57,791 bases of DNA from an uncultured Candidatus Saccharibacteria bacterium. Lineage in GTDB: Bacteria; Patescibacteriota; Minisyncoccia; Phycocordibacterales; SBAW01. The position numbers were made by a program, and so were the translations under genes. Below, one piece after another: positions 13,627 through 51,149 of this stretch. Every line of letters starts with the position of its first letter. Positions within the stretch are counted from its first letter, which is position 1. The notes under the pieces were generated by a model. It saw nothing but the letters and a program-made list of their open reading frames with translations. It had not been told where the DNA came from and searched no databases. Location: NCBI GenBank assembly GCA_964355655.1, contig CAYHDT010000005.1, positions 1-57,791 of the forward strand. The letters run 5' to 3'.

Positions 13627-14910
13627 ATGCTCGATTTGCAGTTTATCCGCGACAATACCGACATCGTCCGCGCGACGCTTGAAAACAAAAAGCGCGAGGT
13701 CGACCTTGACCGTCTTTTACAGCTGGCCGACGAGCGCAAAGCGGCCGCCGGCGAAGTCGGTGAGATAAATAAAAAACGAAACGAGGCGCAGCAAAATCGC
13801 GATGCCGAAGCGGGCAAGCGGCTGAAGGACGAGCTGAGGGTGGCGGAAGAGAAGTATGCCGCGCTTGAAAAAGAAGTTGTTTCGCTTTTGATAAAAATTC
13901 CTAATGTGCCTTCGGCAGACACTCCTATCGGTCCCGACGAGTCTGGCAATGTAGTTGTACGCGAGTGGGGAGAGAAGCGGGTTTTTAGTTTTAAACCTAA
14001 AGAGCACTTCGAGTTGGGCCGCGAGTTGGGCATTATCGATACTGAAAAAGCGACGGAAGTATCCGGCCCGCGCTTCGCATACCTGAAGGGTGACCTGGTG
14101 CTGATGGAGATGGCACTTATGGACCTCGCATGGAGAACGATTACCTCAGAGAGTACCCTTGCCAAAATAATCGCCGATGCGGGACTCTCGCTGAGCGCGA
14201 AACCTTTTATACCGGTAACCCCCCCGCTCATGATGCGCTCGGTGGTGATGAATCGCATGGCGCGGCTCGATCCGATAGACGAGCGCTACTATTTTGAGAA
14301 AGATGACCTGGTGTTTATCGGCAGCGCCGAGCATACGCTGGGCCCCTTGCATATGGACGAAAATTTGCCGGAGAGCGCGTTGCCGCTGCGCTACGCCGCG
14401 CTTACGCCGGCCTTCCGCCGCGAGGCGGGCACGTACGGTAAGGATACGAAAGGCATCTTGCGCTTGCATCAGTTTAATAAATTGGAAATGGAGTCGTTTA
14501 CCAAGCCGGAGGACGGCCTCTCCGAGCAGGAATTTATGGTGGCTATACAAGAATATCTGATGCAACAACTGCGTTTGCCGTACCGCGTCGTTTCAATTTG
14601 CACCGGAGACATGGGCTTTCCCGACCAGCGGCAAATAGATATAGAAACTTGGATGCCGGGCCAGGACCAATATCGCGAAACGCACACCTCCGATTATATA
14701 GGAGGCTTCCAGGCGCGGCGGCTCAATACTAAGGTCAAGCGCGCCGACGGCACCAGTGAACCCGTGCATATGAACGACGCCACCGCACTCTCTCAGCGCC
14801 CGCTTATTGCCATATTGGAGAACTACCAAAACGAGGACGGTTCGGTAACCGTGCCCGAGGTCCTGCGCGCGTATATGGGGAAAGAGAAGATTACTGCGAC
14901 ACAAAAGTAG
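13627..14910 (+). CDS. serS: seryl-tRNA synthetase
   Basis: MLDLQFIR, IPNVP, FRREAG...GILRLHQFNKLE, HMNDAT. Confidence 0.97.
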   Translation: MLDLQFIRDNTDIVRATLENKKREVDLDRLLQLADERKAAAGEVGEINKKRNEAQQNRDAEAGKRLKDELRVAEEKYAALEKEVVSLLIKIPNVPSADTPIGPDESGNVVVREWGEKRVFSFKPKEHFELGRELGIIDTEKATEVSGPRFAYLKGDLVLMEMALMDLAWRTITSESTLAKIIADAGLSLSAKPFIPVTPPLMMRSVVMNRMARLDPIDERYYFEKDDLVFIGSAEHTLGPLHMDENLPESALPLRYAALTPAFRREAGTYGKDTKGILRLHQFNKLEMESFTKPEDGLSEQEFMVAIQEYLMQQLRLPYRVVSICTGDMGFPDQRQIDIETWMPGQDQYRETHTSDYIGGFQARRLNTKVKRADGTSEPVHMNDATALSQRPLIAILENYQNEDGSVTVPEVLRAYMGKEKITATQK

Positions 14911-14912
14911 CC

Positions 14913-14984
14913 TGCGGGAGTCGCATAATTTCCTGCTGGAAATTTGCTGATTCTCGGCCCGTCGGCCTGCGAAACACTCCCGCA
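14913..14984. repeat. branched intergenic palindrome
   Basis: TGCGGGAGT...ACTCCCGCA enclosing AATTTCC-TGCT-GGAAATT and GGCC-CGTC-GGCC. Confidence 0.65.
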
Positions 14985-15014
14985 AACTACTTTTGTTTCG
15001 CTTATACTGTAGTT

Positions 15015-26149: not shown

Positions 26150-26404
26150 ATGTATGTTGTCTACATTATCGAGTGCGGAGATAGGTCCCTGTACACAGGG
26201 ATTACCAACGACCTTAAACGCCGATTTGCGCAGCATCAGCAGGGGAAGGGCGGACATTACACCGCCGCCAAAAAAGCGGTCAAAATACTTTATACTGAAA
26301 AGTGCCCCGACCGCTCAGCGGCGCTAAAACGCGAGGCCGAGATTAAGCGCTGGCCGAGGGCCAAGAAGCTTGGTTTAATAAAAGCCCTAAAGTTTAGAAG
26401 ATAG
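26150..26404 (+). CDS. GIY-YIG nuclease (UPF0213-like)
   Basis: YVVYIIEC.D.SLYTGITNDL.RR..QH...ALKRE..IK. Confidence 0.9.
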   Translation: MYVVYIIECGDRSLYTGITNDLKRRFAQHQQGKGGHYTAAKKAVKILYTEKCPDRSAALKREAEIKRWPRAKKLGLIKALKFRR

Positions 26405-26417
26405 AGCCTTGCCGTAC

Positions 26418-36503: not shown

Positions 36504-37706
36504 ATGGAACCTTTGGCAAACAAAATACGCCCAAAGTCGCTCGATGAGTTTGTCGGGCAGGAGCACTTGGTCGGCAAGGGGAAACCCCTGAGAGAAGCGA
36601 TTGAGGGCAAGCACCTCTTCAGTTTTATTTTATGGGGGCCGCCGGGGAGCGGTAAGACGACGTTGGCGCGCCTGTATGCCAATGCGCTTAATGCCGAGTT
36701 CCACGAGCTGTCGGCGGTCGACTCCGGCAAGGAGGATATTAAGCGGATACTTGATAAAAAAGGACAAATAAAATTCGATACAAGGCCGAAAGTTTTGTTT
36801 ATCGACGAAATACACCGGTTTAACAAAGCCCAGCAGGATTTTTTGCTGCCATTCGTCGAGCGCGGCGACCTCACGCTCATCGGAGCCACGACGGAGAACC
36901 CGAGCTTCGAGGTCATCGGTGCGCTTTTGTCCAGGACACAAGTGTTTGTGCTGGGTGAGCTTACCGAAAAAGAGATGGAAAAAATAATCGAAAGAGCATA
37001 TGACACATTGAACAAAAATGCGCGCCCCGTTAGAGATAAGTCCGCTAAGCGGACTGCCGACCGTAGTCGGATCTCTAACGGGGCGCGCGAGTGGCTTATC
37101 CAAGCGGCGCAGGGTGATGCGCGGCAGGCTATCGGAGTGTTAGAGAGCGCGCAGAAGCTGTACGGCGCGATAACCCTCGAATCGCTGAAGGAGACTATCC
37201 AAAGCAAGCACCTGCGCTACGATAAAAAAGGCGAGGAGCATTACAACACCATTTCGGCCTTTATAAAATCTATGCGAGCCTCCCAGCCCGACGCGGCGCT
37301 CTACTACCTGGCGCGCATGGTTGAGAGCGGGGAAGACCCTCTTTTTATCGCCCGACGCATGGTCGTGTTTGCCAGCGAGGATATCGGGCTTGCGGTGCCG
37401 ACCGCATTGGTGGTGGCTAACGCGGTCTTTCGCGCGTGCGAAACCATCGGCTACCCGGAATGCGCAATTAATCTCGCGCATGGCGTTGCCTATTTGAGCG
37501 AATGCAAAAAGAGCCGCTCTTCGTATGATGCGTACCTTGAGGCGTTGGATGACGTTAAAACACTAGGTGCCTTGCCTATCCCGATGCGCGTGCGTAATGC
37601 TCCGACGAAGCTGATGAAAAACTTGGGCTATCACAAAGGCTACAAATTTTACGATAAGGAGTCCTATCTGCCGGACAAGCTGAAAGGAAAAAAGTATCTG
37701 AAATAA
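36504..37706 (+). CDS. rarA: replication-associated recombination protein A (RarA/MgsA)
   Basis: GPPGSGKTT, IDEIHRF, ATTENP, ISAFIKSMR, SEDIG, PKS-like KKS. Confidence 0.95.
   Translation: MEPLANKIRPKSLDEFVGQEHLVGKGKPLREAIEGKHLFSFILWGPPGSGKTTLARLYANALNAEFHELSAVDSGKEDIKRILDKKGQIKFDTRPKVLFIDEIHRFNKAQQDFLLPFVERGDLTLIGATTENPSFEVIGALLSRTQVFVLGELTEKEMEKIIERAYDTLNKNARPVRDKSAKRTADRSRISNGAREWLIQAAQGDARQAIGVLESAQKLYGAITLESLKETIQSKHLRYDKKGEEHYNTISAFIKSMRASQPDAALYYLARMVESGEDPLFIARRMVVFASEDIGLAVPTALVVANAVFRACETIGYPECAINLAHGVAYLSECKKSRSSYDAYLEALDDVKTLGALPIPMRVRNAPTKLMKNLGYHKGYKFYDKESYLPDKLKGKKYLK
37025..37083. mobile_element. MITE-like in-frame insert in rarA
   Basis: 13-bp terminal inverted repeat CCCCGTTAGAGAT; CGCG on both sides; net 63 bp. 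Confidence 0.75.
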
Positions 37707-37745
37707 AAAACTCCGCGCGGGGCGGAGTTGCAGAGTCGTCGGCTT

Positions 37746-38132
37746 CTAGATAAACCGGCTGGAGAGCCAGTCGTGTGCCATATGCGCCACCAAACCGATG
37801 GGGAAAAAAACAATCGAGCCTAGAAAGGCCACAATCATGCTCTCAGAAAATCCGGCGTTTTGAGCGAGCCCGAAGATGAAGATGAGTGCCCCTGCAACTA
37901 TGGCTGCCACGAGTCCTGTCCGGAGCTGTTCTCTGAATCCTTCGTCCCATGAAAACATCCATCCACGGATTAACATGGCTATCAGAGACACTACTGACCC
38001 GAAGACAAATATTTCGAGGTAGACGGAAGCGGGGGATAGTGTCCGGATGAGAATATTTATTATGACCAGAAACAAATCAAGCAAAAACCCGCCGGCAAAA
38101 GCGGCAAGCAGCGTAACACCGAATCGGCGCAT
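37746..38132 (-). CDS. hypothetical multi-TM membrane protein
   Basis: AAGGAGG SD before ATG 38132; four hydrophobic segments. Confidence 0.72.
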   Translation of the reverse strand: MRRFGVTLLAAFAGGFLLDLFLVIINILIRTLSPASVYLEIFVFGSVVSLIAMLIRGWMFSWDEGFREQLRTGLVAAIVAGALIFIFGLAQNAGFSESMIVAFLGSIVFFPIGLVAHMAHDWLSSRFI

Positions 38133-38208
38133 AGCGACCTCCTTAAGATCTATTGCTGCATGTACAATATCTTTGCTTGCCAAAATGTCAAATAAAAATG
38201 CCGCCGGA

Positions 38209-38802
38209 CTAAAAGCCCGGCGGCGGTTCGCCAAACGTCATGAGGTGCGCGGCATAGCGGACTTCCTCGGACTTCAGATAGCCCAAGCGGCAGACGTGTG
38301 TGGAGGTCGCGCTCTGCGTGACGGTTCTGCACCCGGTGGTGTAGAAGTCGCGGAAACCAAGCAGCATGGCCGTAAGGTCAACCGCCTCTTCGTGCCGGGA
38401 AAGGACGTGTCCGACCGAGTCAAGCACGACGTGCGAGAGTTCGTGGGCGACCGCAAGGACCACCTGTTCGAAGGTTGCTTCCTGGAGGAATGATTTCCGG
38501 AAGTTAACCATAATGAGCGTATTCTTAAAGTCCCGCGTGCCTCTCATAGGCAGGGGCATCGGACGATTGATCCAGGCAGGTGCATCTCCGATATCTGCCG
38601 GAGTATTGCCGTTCCACAAACCGACTCTGATCCGGAGATTGAGCTTAAGTGTGTCGCGGACGAAACGTACGATGCTGTTGTAGTCCCTGGCCTTGTAAAA
38701 GGCTTCGAGTTCAGTATCGTCGATCGGTGCGCGTGTCGGGCCGAACGACAGGCGCAGCGCGCCTATGTAAGCGTGCAGCATTTCTCTGCGTATCTTCACC
38801 AC
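38209..38802 (-). CDS. HExxH zinc-metalloprotease-like protein (ImmA/IrrE-like)
   Basis: VAHELSH ... EEAVDLTAMLLG ... GYL. Confidence 0.65.
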   Translation of the reverse strand: MVKIRREMLHAYIGALRLSFGPTRAPIDDTELEAFYKARDYNSIVRFVRDTLKLNLRIRVGLWNGNTPADIGDAPAWINRPMPLPMRGTRDFKNTLIMVNFRKSFLQEATFEQVVLAVAHELSHVVLDSVGHVLSRHEEAVDLTAMLLGFRDFYTTGCRTVTQSATSTHVCRLGYLKSEEVRYAAHLMTFGEPPPGF

Positions 38803-38878
38803 AATCTCTCCCGTGCTATTTCTAGAATAATTTATACTATTTTAATATATAAAAGTCAAGCAAATAAAAAACCGCCGA

Positions 38879-39060
38879 TTATTTTGGCGGTTGCTGCTTC
38901 TCGAACTTGTGGACACGGATACATTTAGGGCCGAGCGGTTTATGGCTTGTGCCGCGGCCGCGACACTTGGGACATTGCTTCAACCTCTCGCGTATATCGG
39001 CCTCCCGGCCTTAGGCCTCAGGATATTGCCGCTTCCGCGGCATGTTTTGCATAGTGACAT
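38879..39060 (-). pseudogene. frameshifted small DnaJ-type CxxCxGxG zinc-finger ORF
   Basis: AAGGAG SD; CKTCRGSG and CPKCRGRG lie in different frames; 182 nt from start to stop. Confidence 0.5.
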
Positions 39061-39103
39061 GACAAACTCCTTTTTCTTCTGGGACGAAGAGTATACTAAC
39101 TAT

Positions 39104-39628
39104 ATGCAGGAAACAATAGTCTTCGGCGGGGGATGCTTTTGGTGCACGGAGGCGGTTTTTCTGATGATTAAGGGAGGGCAGTCGGTGGAGCCGGGATATA
39201 CCGGAGGTAACACTGTTGATCCGACCGATACCGACGTTTATACCGGGAAGACCGGCCACGCGGAGGTGGTCAAAATAGAGTACAACCCCGATCAAATTTC
39301 TCTTGAAGAGTTATTACAGGTATTTTTTTCTACACACGACGGTACACAGCTCAACCGCCAGGGGCCGGATGTGGGCACTATGTATCGCTCGGCTATTTTT
39401 TACACTACCGAGCGCCAGAGAGAAAAGGCCCGGCACTATATTGATGTTCTAAATAAAAATGTTACTCAGCGTATTGTGACTGAAGTTGTGCCTCTCGATA
39501 AATTCTATCCGGCACAGGATTATCACAAAAATTTCTACAAAAGCGGTAATCGCCCGGATTATTGTGAGTTAGTTATCGATCCAAAAGTTGATAAGGTAAA
39601 AAATAAATTCAAAAGCCTACTCAAATGA
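39104..39628 (+). CDS. msrA: peptide-methionine (S)-S-oxide reductase
   Basis: FGGGCFWC, GHAEV, QGPDVG.MYRS, YH. Confidence 0.95.
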   Translation: MQETIVFGGGCFWCTEAVFLMIKGGQSVEPGYTGGNTVDPTDTDVYTGKTGHAEVVKIEYNPDQISLEELLQVFFSTHDGTQLNRQGPDVGTMYRSAIFYTTERQREKARHYIDVLNKNVTQRIVTEVVPLDKFYPAQDYHKNFYKSGNRPDYCELVIDPKVDKVKNKFKSLLK

Positions 39629-40047
39629 CTATTGAAGAATTTGAACAATTAGTGGAGCGGGAGTTCCCGCTGGCGGTGCCGGAGAAATTTCATCACCTGA
39701 TAAAGAATGTGGCTTTTTTGGTTGAGGACGAGCCGGACGCAGTGGCGCGGAAAGAAAATGGTTTACAACAAGGCGAAACTTTGTTGGGACTTTATAAGGG
39801 AGTGCCATATACCGAGCGCGGCGACCTGTACGGGGTAGGCGGCACGTTGCCCGACACCATTACGCTCTACCGGCTGCCGATTGAGCATGCCGCCGTTCAA
39901 GATAATCTCCCGGTCGCGCAAGTTATCCGCGAGACCATCTGGCACGAGGTGGCCCACCACTTTGGCATGGACGAGCATACGGTACGGGGCCGCGAGCATC
40001 AGCGTGACCACGGCCCCGATGAGTCGTGTGAAAGTTGCTCGGCATGA
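39625..40047 (+). CDS. minimal zincin (DUF1025/Zincin_1-like)
   Basis: LLGLYKG.P, PD.ITLYR.P, HEVAHHFG. Confidence 0.85.
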   Translation: MTIEEFEQLVEREFPLAVPEKFHHLIKNVAFLVEDEPDAVARKENGLQQGETLLGLYKGVPYTERGDLYGVGGTLPDTITLYRLPIEHAAVQDNLPVAQVIRETIWHEVAHHFGMDEHTVRGREHQRDHGPDESCESCSA

Positions 40048-40059
40048 TATAAAGGAAAC

Positions 40060-40485
40060 ATGCAAGAAAAACTACCCCTAGCGCCTTATATACTCCTCGC
40101 ACTCGCAATGGTCGGGCTGGGCGATACTTTGTATCTGTCGTACTTCCAATATATGAACCTTATCCCCACGTGCGCTATCGGCGGGTGCGAGGTGGTGCTG
40201 ACCAGTGTGCACTCAAAATTCTTCGGCGTGCCGTGGTCCTACATCGGCATGGTTTTCTATTCCTATATGTTCTGCCTCGCCGTACTTTTGTGCATCGAGC
40301 CGCGCTCTAAGGCTTTGCGCCTCGGCGCGCTCGTTTATACCGGGGCGGGATTCCTGTACTCGGCGTGGGCCATTTTTTACGTCCAACTCACGGTCATCGG
40401 GGCGCTCTGCCAATTTTGCGCAATCTCGGCGCTGACCGCTTTCGCATTATTTTGCGTAGCCGTCTGGCATTGGCGAACAACTTAA
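40060..40485 (+). CDS. vitamin K epoxide reductase (VKOR) family protein
   Basis: C..GGC..VL.S, GVP, LCQFC. Confidence 0.9.
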   Translation: MQEKLPLAPYILLALAMVGLGDTLYLSYFQYMNLIPTCAIGGCEVVLTSVHSKFFGVPWSYIGMVFYSYMFCLAVLLCIEPRSKALRLGALVYTGAGFLYSAWAIFYVQLTVIGALCQFCAISALTAFALFCVAVWHWRTT

Positions 40486-41249
40486 TACGCCGGCCTGCGG
40501 TAGCGGTTAAATAGCCGCCAGAGGAAATACAGTACCAGGAGCGCCGCTACCGGGTAAAAGATGCCCGCGCTGCCGATAATAAAGTTAAGCAGGGTAAGCA
40601 GATACAGATAAAGGGTCCAGAGGATAAACCAAAAAGTGCCTGTCGGGTCGGTAGTGGCTTGCGCGACCGTCCCGGCGCCCAACACCTCGCCGGAACGATC
40701 GCCCAGGTTAACCTTGGCGGCCGCTATTTGGCCGTCGATAGTGTCGGAGAGCGTCGCGCGCCCGCTGTCGATGAACTTAAAGACCGGTGCCGTGGCATTG
40801 GCCGCGGCGGGGGAAAAGCCGGCTATGCTGTCCTGGATTTTTTGCGAAGATTCGACCGGTGCGGCGGCCTGTGCGACTGTATCCGCTGGCTGCGGCTTTG
40901 CGGCGATGCTGAAAGTCTCGGATTGTCTCTCTACAACCTCGGTGCCTTTCTTCAGCTCGGCGACAACCGTGTGCGAGCCTTTCAGGGGCTTCCAGGATAC
41001 CGATACTACCGACGCTTCGTTTGCATTAAGCGACACCGGCACACTGCCGATAGCCGCCGCCCCTTCGCTGAACTGCATCGTACCGGTAAAAGCGGACGCG
41101 TCCTCGTTGGCGATGACGGCGTGGATAATCACCGTTTCTCCCTCGACTACCGCCGACCGCGACAGAAAGAGCGACTGCTTGGCAAACCCCGCCCCAAAAG
41201 CGATATAAGGAGCCGCTAATAGTGCGAGCAATAACGCGTATTTCATCAT
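40482..41249 (-). CDS. exported Ig-like (CARDB-like) protein with C-terminal TM
   Basis: Signal peptide, beta-rich domain, C-terminal hydrophobic helices. Confidence 0.7.
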   Translation of the reverse strand: MMKYALLLALLAAPYIAFGAGFAKQSLFLSRSAVVEGETVIIHAVIANEDASAFTGTMQFSEGAAAIGSVPVSLNANEASVVSVSWKPLKGSHTVVAELKKGTEVVERQSETFSIAAKPQPADTVAQAAAPVESSQKIQDSIAGFSPAAANATAPVFKFIDSGRATLSDTIDGQIAAAKVNLGDRSGEVLGAGTVAQATTDPTGTFWFILWTLYLYLLTLLNFIIGSAGIFYPVAALLVLYFLWRLFNRYRRPAY

Positions 41250-41263
41250 GCTATTATTATTGC

Positions 41264-42205
41264 ATGAGATTTTTTAGGTGGTGCAAGCGGCTTTTGGTTC
41301 CGCATCACGAAAACGCCTATCGCCCGCATCTTTTGCGCCGCGGCTCGCTTGTATTTTTGCTCGCGGTGGCGCTTTTGGCTGAAGGTGCACTAGTCTTCAA
41401 TCTTATGGCCCGGCACGGGGGAGCGGGCTTTATGGCCGCGGTGATACAAAGCGAGATTATTTCGCTTACCAACTCGGAGCGCGCGCAAAATAAAATAGCT
41501 GTTCTCGCGGAAAATACTCTCCTTAACCAGTCCGCACAAGCTAAAGCTGATGATATGGCCACAAAGGGCTATTTTGCGCACAATAGCCCGGACGGCACGC
41601 AGCCTTGGAGCTGGATAGACGCCGCCGGATACGATTATCAGTACGCGGGGGAAAATTTGGCCGTTCGATTCGTCGATTCGAAAGACGTCGTTGTCGGTTG
41701 GATGGCGTCGCCGACGCACCGCGCCAACATTGTCAAGCCGGCGTACACTGAGGTGGGCGTTGGCATCGCGCAAGGCATGTATAAAGGCCAAATAGCGACG
41801 TTTGTGGTGCAGCATTTTGCAAAACCGTCGGCCAAGGCGCTCGCTGCGCGGGCGAGCGGGCAGGTACTGGGCGCCGAAATAGGTCCTCCGCCGTCGCTAA
41901 CCGACACGGCCCTGCGCACTGCGGGCAAGATTATTTCCGAACCAAGGCAGACGACCGCGTGGGTACTGGGCGGGATAATCGCTCTTCTCGCGCTGGCGCT
42001 CGTCATCGCTTTTTTCCACCATGTGCAGGTACAGGCGCGCGACCTTTTGGTGCCGGGGACCATGGTTGCAGTCGTTGCTTTGACGCTCCTTGTTATCAAC
42101 ACAAACTTTCTTTCATCAACTATTACGGTAACTGCGCAGGAGGCGGGGGTTGCGGGCTACCATGGAGTAGTATTGACGCCCGAAGCCGGCTACTCGGAAC
42201 GGTAA
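41264..42205 (+). CDS. CAP/SCP-domain membrane protein
   Basis: AQAKADDM..GYFAH, AGENLA, WMASPTHRANI. Confidence 0.88.
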   Translation: MRFFRWCKRLLVPHHENAYRPHLLRRGSLVFLLAVALLAEGALVFNLMARHGGAGFMAAVIQSEIISLTNSERAQNKIAVLAENTLLNQSAQAKADDMATKGYFAHNSPDGTQPWSWIDAAGYDYQYAGENLAVRFVDSKDVVVGWMASPTHRANIVKPAYTEVGVGIAQGMYKGQIATFVVQHFAKPSAKALAARASGQVLGAEIGPPPSLTDTALRTAGKIISEPRQTTAWVLGGIIALLALALVIAFFHHVQVQARDLLVPGTMVAVVALTLLVINTNFLSSTITVTAQEAGVAGYHGVVLTPEAGYSER

Positions 42206-42226
42206 GGTATACTATTTGGATATGAA

Positions 42227-42307
42227 TCCCGTTAGAAATCCAGCCATTTGGAACATGGGGTTCGTTATAGATAGTCGAGAGTTTTATAAACTAAATTTCT
42301 AACGGGA
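42227..42307. mobile_element. MITE-like insert at the FKBP start codon
   Basis: 13-bp terminal inverted repeat TCCCGTTAGAAAT; TGAA duplicated at 42223-26 and 42308-11. Confidence 0.75.
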
Positions 42308-42747
42308 TGAACAAGAACATCATAACGGGCATAGCCGTAACTGCCGGTTTGGCGGTGGTGGCGCTTTTCTTTGTGTACGATCCGATCGGCATATCTTCAG
42401 GTGTTGCGGCACCTGCTTCTGCGGGACTTGTCGTGCAGGATGAGGTAGTGGGTACGGGCGCGGAGGCGCAGGCAGGCAGCATAGTGAGTGTGCATTACAC
42501 AGGAAAGTTGTCCGACGGCACAGTCTTCGACACGTCGGTCGGCAAAGCTCCTATCGAATTTCCGCTCGGCACCGGATACGTCATTCCCGGCTGGGATCAA
42601 GGGATAGTGGGCATGAAAGTCGGCGGCAAGCGCCTGTTGATAGTCCCGCCGGAGCTCGGATACGGCGCGCAGGCAAACGGCCCCATCCCCGGAAACTCAA
42701 CGCTGATATTTGAAGTAGAGCTTGTAAAGGTCACTCCCGCGCAGTAA
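42307..42747 (+). CDS. FKBP-type peptidyl-prolyl isomerase
   Basis: VHYTGKL.DG..FD, VIPGWDQG, GG.R.LIVPPELGYG. Confidence 0.95.
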   Translation: MNKNIITGIAVTAGLAVVALFFVYDPIGISSGVAAPASAGLVVQDEVVGTGAEAQAGSIVSVHYTGKLSDGTVFDTSVGKAPIEFPLGTGYVIPGWDQGIVGMKVGGKRLLIVPPELGYGAQANGPIPGNSTLIFEVELVKVTPAQ

Positions 42748-42796
42748 AGCTCCGCAAAAACTTCGTTTTTGCTCCGTATCTTGCTACTCTTCCGTG

Positions 42797-44083
42797 ATGC
42801 GTCCGATTTCCTTTCAGATAGAAAAAGAAATGCCCGGCTCCCTCGCGAGAGCCGGCATTTTGTCTACGCCGCATGGCGATATTAAAACGCCGGCTTTTGT
42901 CGCGGTGGGGACTAAGGCAGATGTCAAAGGAGTTCAAACGGCGCAGTTCGGCGAACTTGGCATTCAAACTATCATCGCCAACACCTACCATTTATATCTT
43001 TCGCCCGGTCCTGAGTTGATTGCAAAGGCGGGCGGGATACATACGTTTATGGGCTTTGACGGGCCTATCATGACCGACTCGGGCGGCTTCCAAGTCTTTT
43101 CGCTCGGCGAGGGATTTGGTAAAAAGGTTTCGAAAGTCACAGCCGGTGAAAAAGTTCCTTTCTCCGGAGAGATAAACACGACCCCAACTCCTACAAAAGA
43201 AACTTTTTCACCGGCTGTGTACGATGAAGAGTTGGCAACCTCTCACGGCAAGCTTGCAATCATTGATGATGACGGCGTAACTTTTACTTCGCACATTGAC
43301 GGAAGCCTTCACCGGTTTACTCCTGAACGCTCTGTTGAAATACAGCATAGCCTCGGCGCGGATATTATTTATGCGTTCGACGAGTGTACTTCCCCCGCGG
43401 CCGACCATGAGTATCAAAAAGAGGCGATGGACAGAACGCACCGCTGGGCCGACCGCTCGCTGAAGGCCCACCGGCAGATGTCAACAAAGGCTAAACCTTT
43501 GCATTGCAAAGGTTTAGCCTTTGTACCGGGGATATACGGTATCGTGCAGGGCGGACGGTTTGCCGACCTGCGTATTGAGAGCGCCAAATATCTGGCCGGC
43601 ATGGACTTTGACGGCTACGGCATCGGCGGCTCGTTCAGCAAGCACGATATTCTTGGGATATTGGACAAAGTAAATACGGAACTGCCTAAGGAGAAGCCGC
43701 GCCACTTGCTCGGCATCGGCGAGCCCGAAGATATTTTTATCGGAGTTGCATCCGGTATAGACACGTTTGACTGTGTTACCCCGACCCGCAACGGCCGCAA
43801 TGGGGGGATATATGCCGTAGACGGCAAATATCAAATTCCAAATAACAAATATCAAACGGATTTCGGGCCGCTTGATGAAGGGTGCGAGTGTCCCGTCTGT
43901 AAAGTGCATACCCGCGCCTATGTGCACCACCTGTTCCGCACCAAAGAAATGCTTGGCGGTATTTTAGCATCTATGCACAACTTATATTTCCTGACGAATC
44001 TGGTTCAGCAAATCCGGGCGTCTATACTGGACGGCTCGTTCGAGCGTTATCAACAGTCCTTCCTTCAAGAGTATAAGCAGTGA
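42797..44083 (+). CDS. tgt: tRNA-guanine transglycosylase
   Basis: TPAFV.VGT, MTDSGGFQVFSL, GIVQGG, FDCV.PTR, CECPVC...H. Confidence 0.95.
   Translation: MRPISFQIEKEMPGSLARAGILSTPHGDIKTPAFVAVGTKADVKGVQTAQFGELGIQTIIANTYHLYLSPGPELIAKAGGIHTFMGFDGPIMTDSGGFQVFSLGEGFGKKVSKVTAGEKVPFSGEINTTPTPTKETFSPAVYDEELATSHGKLAIIDDDGVTFTSHIDGSLHRFTPERSVEIQHSLGADIIYAFDECTSPAADHEYQKEAMDRTHRWADRSLKAHRQMSTKAKPLHCKGLAFVPGIYGIVQGGRFADLRIESAKYLAGMDFDGYGIGGSFSKHDILGILDKVNTELPKEKPRHLLGIGEPEDIFIGVASGIDTFDCVTPTRNGRNGGIYAVDGKYQIPNNKYQTDFGPLDEGCECPVCKVHTRAYVHHLFRTKEMLGGILASMHNLYFLTNLVQQIRASILDGSFERYQQSFLQEYKQ
43138..43219. repeat. in-frame 19-bp inverted repeat insert in tgt
   Basis: CACAGCCGGTGAAAAAGTT / AACTTTTTCACCGGCTGTG. 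Confidence 0.8.
43484..43524. repeat. in-frame 20-bp inverted repeat in tgt (AAGG-N5-CCTT pair)
   Basis: ACAAAGGCTAAACCTTTGCA-T-TGCAAAGGTTTAGCCTTTGT. Confidence 0.85.
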
Positions 44084-49001: not shown

Positions 49002-51149
49002 ATGGCTAATTTTAAACTCTCGACCCACCACACGCCTGCCGGCGACCAGCCCAAGGCCATCGAGGCTCTGATACAGGGTCTTACGCGCGGCGAGCGGCAC
49101 CAAACCCTGCTGGGGGTGACCGGTTCGGGCAAGACTTTTACCGCGGCTAATGTTATTGCCGCGCTCGACAAGCCCACGCTGGTTATAGCCCACAACAAAA
49201 CGCTGGCCGCCCAGCTGGCGCAGGAGTACCGGGACTTTTTTCCCGATGCAGCGGTGCACTATTTTGTCTCGTACTACGACTACTATCAGCCGGAGGCGTA
49301 CATGGCGCACTCCGACACTTACATAGAAAAGGAGGCGCAAATAAACGAAGAGATAGAGCGCTTGCGCCACGCTTCGACGCAGGCCCTGCTGACGCGCAAA
49401 GATGTGATAGTAGTCGCCTCGGTATCCTGCATTTACGGCCTGGGGAGCCCCGAAGAGTATCGCAAAGTGCACCTCGAGCTGAAATCAGGCATCAAAAAGA
49501 ACCGCGCGGAGCTTATCCGCGAGCTCATCGGCGTGTACTTTGAGCGCACAAATGCCGACTTAACCCCCGGCACCTTTAGGGCATTGGGCAACAGTGTGGA
49601 AATAATGCCGACGGGCGAGCGGGTGCTGTACCGCGTCGAGTTCGCCCATTCGACGGGCTCAGGGCAAGAGGGCGAGCAAATCGGCAAACTGCGCATTATA
49701 GACGCGGTTACCCGCGCAGAAATAAATCAAGGACCGTCCTCCATTTTTTTGTTTCCGGCCAAGCATTACGTTACCCCTGAGCATGAGCGAGCGCGCGCCA
49801 TCGCGGATATTCGCGCGGAGCTCAAGGCCCAGCTCGCCAAGTTTGAGCGTGCGGGCAAGCTGCTTGAAGCCGAGCGTCTGAAACGCCGCACCAACTATGA
49901 CTTGGCGATGATACGCGAGGTGGGCTACTGCAACGGGATAGAAAACTATTCCCGCCATTTTGACGGCCGGAAGGCCGGCGAACCCGCACACTCTCTATTG
50001 GAATATTTTCCGCACAAAAAAGACGGCACGCCCGACTTTCTGACTATTATAGACGAGAGCCATGTAACGGTGCCGCAGATAGGCGGCATGTACGCGGGCG
50101 ACCGCGCCCGCAAGGAAACACTGATAGATTTCGGTTTCCGGCTGCCGAGCGCTTTAGACAACCGGCCGCTGCGGTTTGAGGAATTTGAGGAGCGGGTAGG
50201 GCAGGTTATCTATACGTCAGCGACGCCGGGGCCGTATGAAAAAGAAAAGAGCGGCAAGAATATAGTCGAGCAGATTGTCCGGCCGACCGGTCTTTTGGAT
50301 CCGATTATTGATATTCGCCCGGTTACCAGCGGCGCGGTTCTAAAGGACTCTCCTTTGGCTCCCCGTCTGAATTCCAAAGGTTTAGCCTTTGTTTCAAAGG
50401 CTAAACCTTTGGAATCGTATCAAGGACAGGTCCAGGATGTGATAGAAGAGGTGGCAAAAGTGGTCAAGCGCGGCAACCGCGTGCTTATCACCACGCTTAC
50501 CAAAAAGATGGCCGAAGACTTAAACGACTACTTGAAAGAGCGCGGCATAAAGTCGACTTACCTGCACAGCGACGTAGAGACGCTGGAGCGGATTGAAATA
50601 CTGACCAGCCTGCGCCGCGGCGAGTACGATGTGTTGGTGGGCGTCAACCTCCTGCGCGAGGGGCTCGACCTCCCCGAGGTGGAACTGGTGGCGATCCTCG
50701 ATGCCGACAAAGAAGGGTTTTTACGCAGCGAGGTATCGCTGATACAAACCATTGGCCGAGCCGCGCGCAACAGCGCGGGACGGGTTATTTTGTATGCCGA
50801 CCAGGAGACGCCTTCTTTAGTTAAAGCAGTGGGGGAAACCCGCCGCCGCCGTACTGCGCAGGAAGCGTACAATAAAAAGCACGGGATTACGCCGACCACT
50901 ATCATAAAAAATATAAAAGATATTACCGAGGAGCTCCGTAGCGAACATTCTAAAGCGATAGTTACTATGCTCGAGGTGGACAAAGAGCTGTATAAAAAGA
51001 ATCCGCGCCAATTTATCGCGGCTAAAAAACGCGAGATGGCCGAGGCGGTCAAGGAGCTCGACTTTGAGTCGGCAGCTCTTATCCGTGATGAGATTTTAGC
51101 CTTGACCGGAGGAAATGCTAAAAAGAGGCCAAAAAAGCCCAAAAAATAA
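49002..51149 (+). CDS. uvrB: excinuclease ABC subunit B
   Basis: [44 protein letters not shown]. Confidence 0.98.
50342..50415. repeat. three AAGG-N5-CCTT units in frame in uvrB
   Basis: AAAGG-ACTCT-CCTTT followed by a 21-bp inverted repeat at 50371-50415. Confidence 0.85.

Follow-up and report, generated by a model that had tools for sequence, protein, structure and literature searches.

The stretch of DNA analysed here (57,791 nucleotides from an uncultured Candidatus Saccharibacteria bacterium, referred to as the window) carries a gene for an FKBP-type peptidyl-prolyl isomerase, the open reading frame of which matches the Pfam family FKBP_C (PF00254) with an E value of 2e-34, and a short palindromic element that extends into its start codon (Table 1). 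The encoded protein begins MNKNIITGIAV, and its alignment with orthologues starts at residue 1. The two arms of the element are 13 nt long and perfectly complementary, and thus represent the terminal inverted repeats expected of a MITE; a search of the whole window without mismatches located the exact 13-mer at just these two sites. The last base of the element constitutes the A of the rebuilt FKBP start codon, which is completed by the duplicated TG. The frame opened by the original ATG is terminated by a TAA (42300-42302) inside the right arm, and only the four nucleotides CGGG separate this codon from the FKBP ATG at 42307, thereby meeting the expectation for a coupled uORF that its stop lies within a few nucleotides of the gene start. 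An earlier note on this DNA had claimed an inverted-repeat element with TGAA on both sides, an ATG at 42222 located 8 nt past TATACT and opening a 26-codon ORF, a stop of that ORF in the right repeat 4 nt before a new ATG at 42307, and the assembly of this new ATG from the element end plus the duplication. The element and its duplications were found to be correct to the base, all coordinates of the ORF, its stop and both start codons agree, and the new ATG does consist of the A of the element and the TG of TGAA.

Table 1. Coordinates of features at the FKBP locus and of the second copy of the element in the window.
Feature	Position in window	Strand	Remarks
Palindromic element, gene-less (MITE-like), non-autonomous	42227..42307		81 bp
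Left inverted arm, TCCCGTTAGAAAT	42227..42239		Sequence read directly
Right inverted arm, ATTTCTAACGGGA	42295..42307		Sequence read directly
TGAA target-site duplication, left copy	42223..42226		ATGAA empty site in G016
TGAA target-site duplication, right copy	42308..42311		Sequence read directly
-10-like box TATACT	42208..42213	+	8 nt upstream of original ATG 42222
Short frame MNPVRNPAIWNMGFVIDSREFYKLNF, opened by original FKBP ATG	42222..42302	+	26 codons + TAA
FKBP-type peptidyl-prolyl isomerase gene, rebuilt start	42307..42747	+	146 aa, N-terminal membrane anchor
Second family copy, in RarA/MgsA gene	37025..37083		59 bp, in frame
CGCG duplications of the RarA copy	37021-37024 and 37084-37087		Both sides

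Folding of the FKBP-locus element as RNA predicts a 14-bp stem (-25.6 kcal/mol, z = -2.97 against shuffled sequences), which starts only 5 nt past the A of the old ATG and has the FKBP AUG at its base. The interior of the element (42240-42294) is no more than 49% similar to any further copy in this genome and is unmatched in the remaining 79 species of the genus, and no source copy for the element was found either among the genome's own copies or in those 79 species. A permissive Rfam search of positions 36800-43600 returned no relevant match, while a consensus promoter and terminator scan of positions 41800-42800 identified nothing, including no -35 partner for TATACT. The element is present in all of four further assemblies from the same groundwater population, three of which are identical over the compared region, the other being a partial short contig with a 1-base difference. 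Presence/absence polymorphism of the insertion was not seen across these four assemblies, and the insertion appears to be fixed in this population.

Orthologues of the FKBP gene occur in 58 of the 60 other sampled species of the genus, and a comparison was made of the start regions at the 29 loci of other genomes that matched best. None of these 29 loci carries an element at the FKBP start. In a relative with a protein 77% identical (G016), the empty site reads GGTATACT-ACTGCGTAT-ATGAATCAG, i.e. TATACT, 9 nt and ATGAA, and the junction that the earlier note had predicted for comparison of orthologous 5' regions is thus present in a genome lacking the element. The closest orthologue (G350, 82% identical), which also lacks the element, reads GGTATACT-GTTTCC-ATGAAC-ATGAAT, and GGTATACT is consequently kept in the two closest FKBP orthologues. 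A TATNNT-like hexamer lies 6-10 nt upstream of the ATG in approximately 25 of the 29 orthologues, and no Shine-Dalgarno motif was seen in the start regions of the 29. Within the genome under study, -10-like hexamers show a sharp peak 6-9 nt ahead of roughly assigned gene starts (98 genes at a distance of 6 nt, against a background of approximately 20), indicating that leaderless genes are common in this genome. Taken with the empty sites, the box retained in most orthologues demonstrates, insofar as a comparison of sequences can do so, that the FKBP gene was leaderless before the insertion, i.e. that its mRNA would have begun at the ATG, as the earlier note had supposed; TATACT is inferred to be the promoter of this leaderless transcript.

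At the corresponding locus of G350 (L067), the sequence ATGAAC-ATGAAT represents two extra codons (MN) and could be the six-base footprint of an excised element. Just upstream of the same FKBP gene, the preceding gene takes its stop codon from a degenerate mini-hairpin of 34 bp (CCCCGTTAGATAG...CATCTAATAGGG).

The copy in the RarA/MgsA gene (Table 1) adds a total of 63 nt and preserves the reading frame. Exactly 21 residues are missing at this site in 8 of 11 orthologues, which provides independent confirmation of both the insertion and the 4-bp duplication. Further features expected of a MITE are therefore encountered here, namely a target-site duplication that differs between copies (TGAA as opposed to CGCG) and an empty site in relatives (FKBP in G016, and RarA in the 8 orthologues mentioned above). 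The 4-bp duplication that had been claimed for the family as a whole is borne out by TGAA at FKBP, by CGCG in RarA and by the wider collection of 84 distinct elements from several genomes, in which this is the commonest length (46/84).

The 863 kb genome, assembled in 24 contigs, contains approximately 18 larger copies of 59-111 bp in addition to a few mini-hairpins of 29-35 bp. All copies have in common the core YCCCGTTAGA...TCTAACGGGR; the core pair CCCGTTAGA...TCTAACGGG is encountered at 20 places in the genome, as compared to zero occurrences of a backwards control pattern, and the family is defined by the 13-nt inverted arms YCCCGTTAGARRY together with the 4-bp target duplication. Resemblance over the whole length of the copies, which would also be expected of a MITE, is not observed, common interiors being confined to small subfamilies. 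As at FKBP, a start codon is occupied by 15 of the 18 larger copies, all in the register ATGNN|element|TGNN; in this arrangement a start codon with one or two additional bases precedes the element, and TG together with the remainder of the gene follows it. As read from their N-terminal sequences, the genes behind these copies include rpmJ, secY, map, rplC, ssb, ppa (inorganic pyrophosphatase) and ftsX, among others. The start of rplC is rebuilt as GTG, the element at this position ending in G. Leaderless status is not general for the family, four of the copies being positioned within the ribosomal-protein operon of this genome. Under a deliberately generous null model, in which a copy may survive at any non-coding ATG or any start codon, 32% of the copies would be expected on start codons (binomial p = 9e-6 for 15 of 18). 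In a genome from another family of the order (G033) the same register was observed in 13 of 14 copies, and the full start-codon geometry is displayed by 44 of the 84 distinct elements; a further genome (G027) has mostly TTGA duplications at TTGACA-like boxes and not at start codons. The arm core is conserved in many families of the order. Copies in subfamilies have common ancestry, and the counts for the family are not fully independent. A preference of the family for start codons is nevertheless demonstrated, as judged from where the copies lie.

A number of individual copies deserve mention. One copy in this genome (contig C8, 5938-6016) ends in C...G, has a TTGA duplication and rebuilds a TTGACA-like -35 box, and copies with the same ends, TTGA duplications and rebuilt TTGACA-like -35 boxes are found in G027 at loci L011, L014, L018, L020 and L027; TATCA and TAGCA duplications were also noted in G027. 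The ssb start codon is occupied by an element with a TGTA duplication both in this genome (C4, 34747-34857) and at L037 of G033, i.e. in different families, the interiors barely aligning, which may reflect either an ancient insertion common to both or a site that was used repeatedly. Additionally, a 35-bp mini-hairpin, not the same at the two contig ends (C19, 1-60 and C22, 1-310), marks a break of the assembly inside an apparent lepA gene, and a cluster of three mini-hairpins beside this break is conserved in G016 at the corresponding place (L113).

The same cores, at a distance of 130-400 nt from each other, were searched for in 301 genomes of the order, and matches were obtained in 37 of these. 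A recurrent form of 275-282 bp (approximately 277 bp), present in at least 15 of the 301 genomes, possesses the same arms and a single gene for an 86-residue GIY-YIG protein. This form was encountered in one of the 80 species of the genus, and no full-length nuclease copy between FKBP-type arms was found in the genome under study. The longer, enzyme-encoding element with the same ends that would be expected for a MITE thus exists, in other genomes; it had escaped the earlier note. The protein (e.g. MFYTYVLQSKKNGRLYTGCT...KRFLSLTG) matches the Pfam family GIY-YIG (PF01541, E 8e-16) over residues 1-67 and contains no other domain; NCBIfam holds no family for it, and the nearest solved structures are UPF0213 proteins, to which the match is weak (E 8e-4). 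The right arm supplies the final four codons of its gene (S L T G), and the TGA that terminates the gene overlaps the rebuilt ATG of the host. Some full-length copies have the nuclease frame joined to the host ATG (MNPVRE...), and others have a six-codon frame with its stop one base before the nuclease ATG.

Other GIY-YIG genes were also noted in this genome. On contig C10 (29380-29680), a full-length gene for an 85-aa protein with 59% identity to the nucleases of the elements is enclosed by different arms (TCCTGTTGTAGATTTT / AAAATCTCACAACAGGA), and the rebuilt ATG of an AbrB-like gene follows directly; this element has the appearance of a sister family within this genome. At 26150-26410 of the window, a YhbQ-like GIY-YIG gene of 84 aa, 37-40% identical to the element nucleases, stands free, with no inverted arms around it.

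Based on these observations, it is considered probable that the 81-bp segment at FKBP is a gene-less copy of a nuclease-associated family in ultra-small Patescibacteria (CPR), and a translational relay is proposed for the gene behind it. The anatomy of the element, the empty site, the start-codon bias, the nuclease-carrying relatives and the leaderless ancestry are established from genomic data, without any experiment. The element inserted into the TGAA whose T is base 2 of the FKBP start codon and, because it ends in A and is followed by the duplicated TGAA, the ATG is rebuilt ahead of the intact gene. The FKBP mRNA is inferred still to begin at the old ATG, for which there are no transcript data. 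Ribosomes would load at this codon in the manner of any leaderless mRNA and read the 26-codon frame across the element, probably passing before the right arm is transcribed or the stem can form, and would then stop at the right-arm TAA and restart 4 nt on at the FKBP ATG. Each of the three frames of the right arm would end harmlessly, as one contains TAA (the FKBP case), one a TGA overlapping the ATG and one produces an S-N-G fusion (...SNG-M). The nuclease is inferred to act in trans on paired arms and to be what moves gene-less copies.

Initiation on leaderless mRNA and the restart of 70S ribosomes by scanning are each an established mode (PMC9031893). The route proposed for FKBP would employ the same two modes, with the difference from the systems covered there that a mobile element would create the arrangement, which is a proposal without measurement. 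Translation of FKBP through the short frame is therefore best regarded as plausible, in the absence of transcript or ribosome data; it is by geometry only that the short frame is coupled to the FKBP start, and a dependence of expression on this coupling would be an inference. Translational bypass of the kind known from T4 gene 60 was rejected as a candidate, as restart at the rebuilt ATG is simpler and bypass is not required.

The relay presupposes transcription from the ancestral position, and it is here that the strongest alternative arises, according to which an outward promoter within the element drives FKBP as a new leaderless or short-leader mRNA, the short frame being irrelevant. Candidate motifs for such a promoter can be indicated, i.e. 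TTCGTT-17 nt-TATAAA at 42261-42289, which ends 17 nt before the ATG, and TAAATT, which ends 9 nt before it at a spacing typical of the leaderless genes of this genome. However, the consensus scan of 41800-42800 revealed no promoter-like site, the motifs are not common to other copies (the interiors being unrelated), and the TATACT box is intact at its ancestral position. An internal promoter is thus thought unlikely, albeit not to the point of being discarded.

For the relay itself, 23 gene-less copies in the ATGNN register were compared with versions in which the interior had been shuffled. The short frame reaches the right arm or fuses in 12 of the 23 copies as opposed to 4.7 +/- 1.8 after shuffling, a value of 12 being attained in 1 of 2000 shuffles. 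Early-stopping short frames were found in the other 11 ATGNN copies and in 8 of 9 copies in the ATGN register, including those before the genes read as map and rplC, and a frame running to the right arm is therefore not required in general. Occupied start codons are preceded by TANNNT at 5-10 nt in 18 of 33 cases, compared with 23% of the genes of the genome (p = 1e-4), and a Shine-Dalgarno-like motif is present in none of the 33, compared with 11% (p = 0.02). The predicted stem counts against the relay in that, if formed, it would hinder initiation at either ATG.

The arms of 85 elements were analysed with respect to pairing, nine core positions per arm having been fixed by the search and positions 1, 11, 12 and 13 being free. 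Positions 1 and 11-13 do vary, yet they form Watson-Crick pairs in 89-98% of cases and G-T pairs in 0-1%, and pairing is down to chance at position 14. Since the arms covary and the interiors of the copies are mostly unalignable, it appears that the arms are maintained and the interior is not, and the near-absence of G-T wobble pairs points to a constraint at the level of DNA rather than RNA. A nuclease by which the paired arms are read would be compatible with a constraint on DNA, this being an inference. The same findings bear on the possibility that the hairpin has been co-opted by the host as an RNA control or processing site, which would hide the FKBP start until melted or cut, for example by a double-strand RNase. 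That the 14-bp stem has the FKBP AUG at its base, and that the arms stay perfectly complementary where the interiors have diverged to background, would be in keeping with such a role; RNA helices, however, usually tolerate the G-T pairs that are so scarce at the covarying positions, no Rfam family is matched, one copy lies in frame within coding sequence (RarA), and others lie on -35-like boxes, where an RNA role at start codons makes no sense. Co-option as an RNA site is accordingly judged to be quite improbable. Scarcely tenable is the notion that the repeat is not mobile DNA and represents a host-encoded palindromic binding site or some other conserved start-codon signal, for which the conservation of the arm core across many families of the order might be cited, as it is already contradicted by the empty sites of close relatives and is further opposed by a 4-bp duplication particular to each copy, an arm spacing that ranges from approximately 10 to 260 nt, copies within coding sequence and a nuclease-gene form with the same ends.

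Integron attC sites were considered and rejected, the GTT...AAC core halves being in the opposite order, as was a dimeric operator, in view of the spacing of the arms (approximately 10 to 260 nt).

The closest published system to the mobile, nuclease-associated family favoured here is that of the Ssn nucleases with hairpin repeats (PMC11893778). These are single-domain GIY-YIG nucleases of approximately 94 residues that cut single-stranded DNA near NTS/SRM hairpin repeats (Chenal et al. 2025, PMC11893778); the repeats flank the Ssn gene and are also scattered in the genome, and the arrangement NTS-ssnA-NTS was likened by its authors to an insertion sequence. The likeness resides in the 86-aa single-domain GIY-YIG protein (approximately 90 aa) of the full-length relatives, which is not a trait of the 81-bp copy, and in a nuclease gene bracketed by repeats that are also dispersed in the genome. 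The Ssn repeats are, however, self-contained hairpins of approximately 28 nt, whereas in the present family the two ends pair mutually, and 4-bp duplications and start-codon insertions distinguish this family from Ssn. A search of PMC11893778 for the terms 'start codon', Patescibacteria and 'Candidate' found none of these. The SRM motif HGTCWY...RNCYNB is absent from the FKBP copy, the RarA copy and seven full-length elements, and it is not enriched in the genome, with 3 hits against 4-5 in shuffled sequences.

The Correia elements of Neisseria are bacterial MITEs that are co-transcribed with neighbouring genes and have a TA duplication. They resemble the present copies in being short, gene-less and dispersed, with inverted ends, a target duplication and the possibility of hairpins in mRNA, but differ in that the duplication here is 4 bp long and has base 2 of the start codon as its first base, the copies have just 13-nt arms in common, and the parent is a GIY-YIG gene and not a DDE transposase; to our knowledge, Correia elements are derived from no nuclease-only parent. 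Classical MITEs likewise exhibit the inverted ends, the duplication and the gene-less state, without the start-codon register or a nuclease-only parent. Rickettsia palindromic elements are known as insertions that are tolerated in frame within protein-coding genes, in which respect they are similar to the RarA copy, and we know of no report that they prefer start codons or have a nuclease-carrying parent. The REP/BIME-RAYT system and the gene-less derivatives of IS200/IS605 depend on Y1 (HUH) transposases, show no target duplication and are situated mainly after genes (PMC11893778). A small nuclease and hairpin repeats, with probable action on single-stranded DNA, are shared with both; the present family does not belong to either in view of the 4-bp duplications, the GIY-YIG parent ORF and the start-codon sites. 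The papers searched were found to contain no account of inverted-repeat GIY-YIG elements at start codons in bacteria, and the habit of this family of landing on and rebuilding start codons is apparently unusual and undescribed.

Beyond the identity of the FKBP copy, it is possible, as a tentative suggestion only, that the family constitutes a new enzymatic class of prokaryotic transposon, in which a bare GIY-YIG nuclease, as the sole protein, recognises the paired arms and which lives by translational hitch-hiking. With a size of approximately 277 bp it would be the smallest self-contained kind of transposon known to us. Such an element would land on start codons without a Shine-Dalgarno motif, mostly leaderless ones, where the target may be single-stranded in the open complex of the promoter; it would borrow the host ATG for its own gene and return ribosomes to the host gene via the stop and start encoded by the arm, and the FKBP copy would be a gene-less passenger. 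If true, an element that aims at start codons and spares gene function would represent a new route of persistence for selfish DNA in compact genomes, a nuclease-only element would be added to the known kinds of bacterial transposon, and the recently found Ssn-type nucleases would gain a role that may have been their original one. With respect to annotation, such insertions yield false short genes and mis-called starts in genomes of Patescibacteria. Furthermore, a leaderless gene turned into a two-frame relay would, the relay being inferred, amount to a natural experiment on leaderless and restart translation.

Several other repeats were observed in the window. A palindrome at 43483-43519 (AACAAAGGCTAAACCTTTGC...) lies in frame within the tgt gene and extends the protein by 9 residues (..KAKPLHCKGLAFV..) not found in any orthologue of the alignment shown, and a related perfect palindrome with 21-nt arms is located at 50371-50415 (region 50357-50415); together these look like a second, different family of palindromic insertions. 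A hypervariable loop of tgt contains an inverted repeat at 43138-43219 (24-nt arms, 96% complementary), the peptide of which is present in G016 and missing in the other orthologues. Four to six occurrences of the repeat GGCGGCCTTTTCTTTTGCTAC(AAT), which resembles the tail of a terminator combined with a promoter, lie between 21286 and 25504, perhaps on either side of small genes or tRNAs. Finally, an inverted repeat with 26-nt arms, 88% complementary and 54 nt apart, is positioned at 14896-15001.
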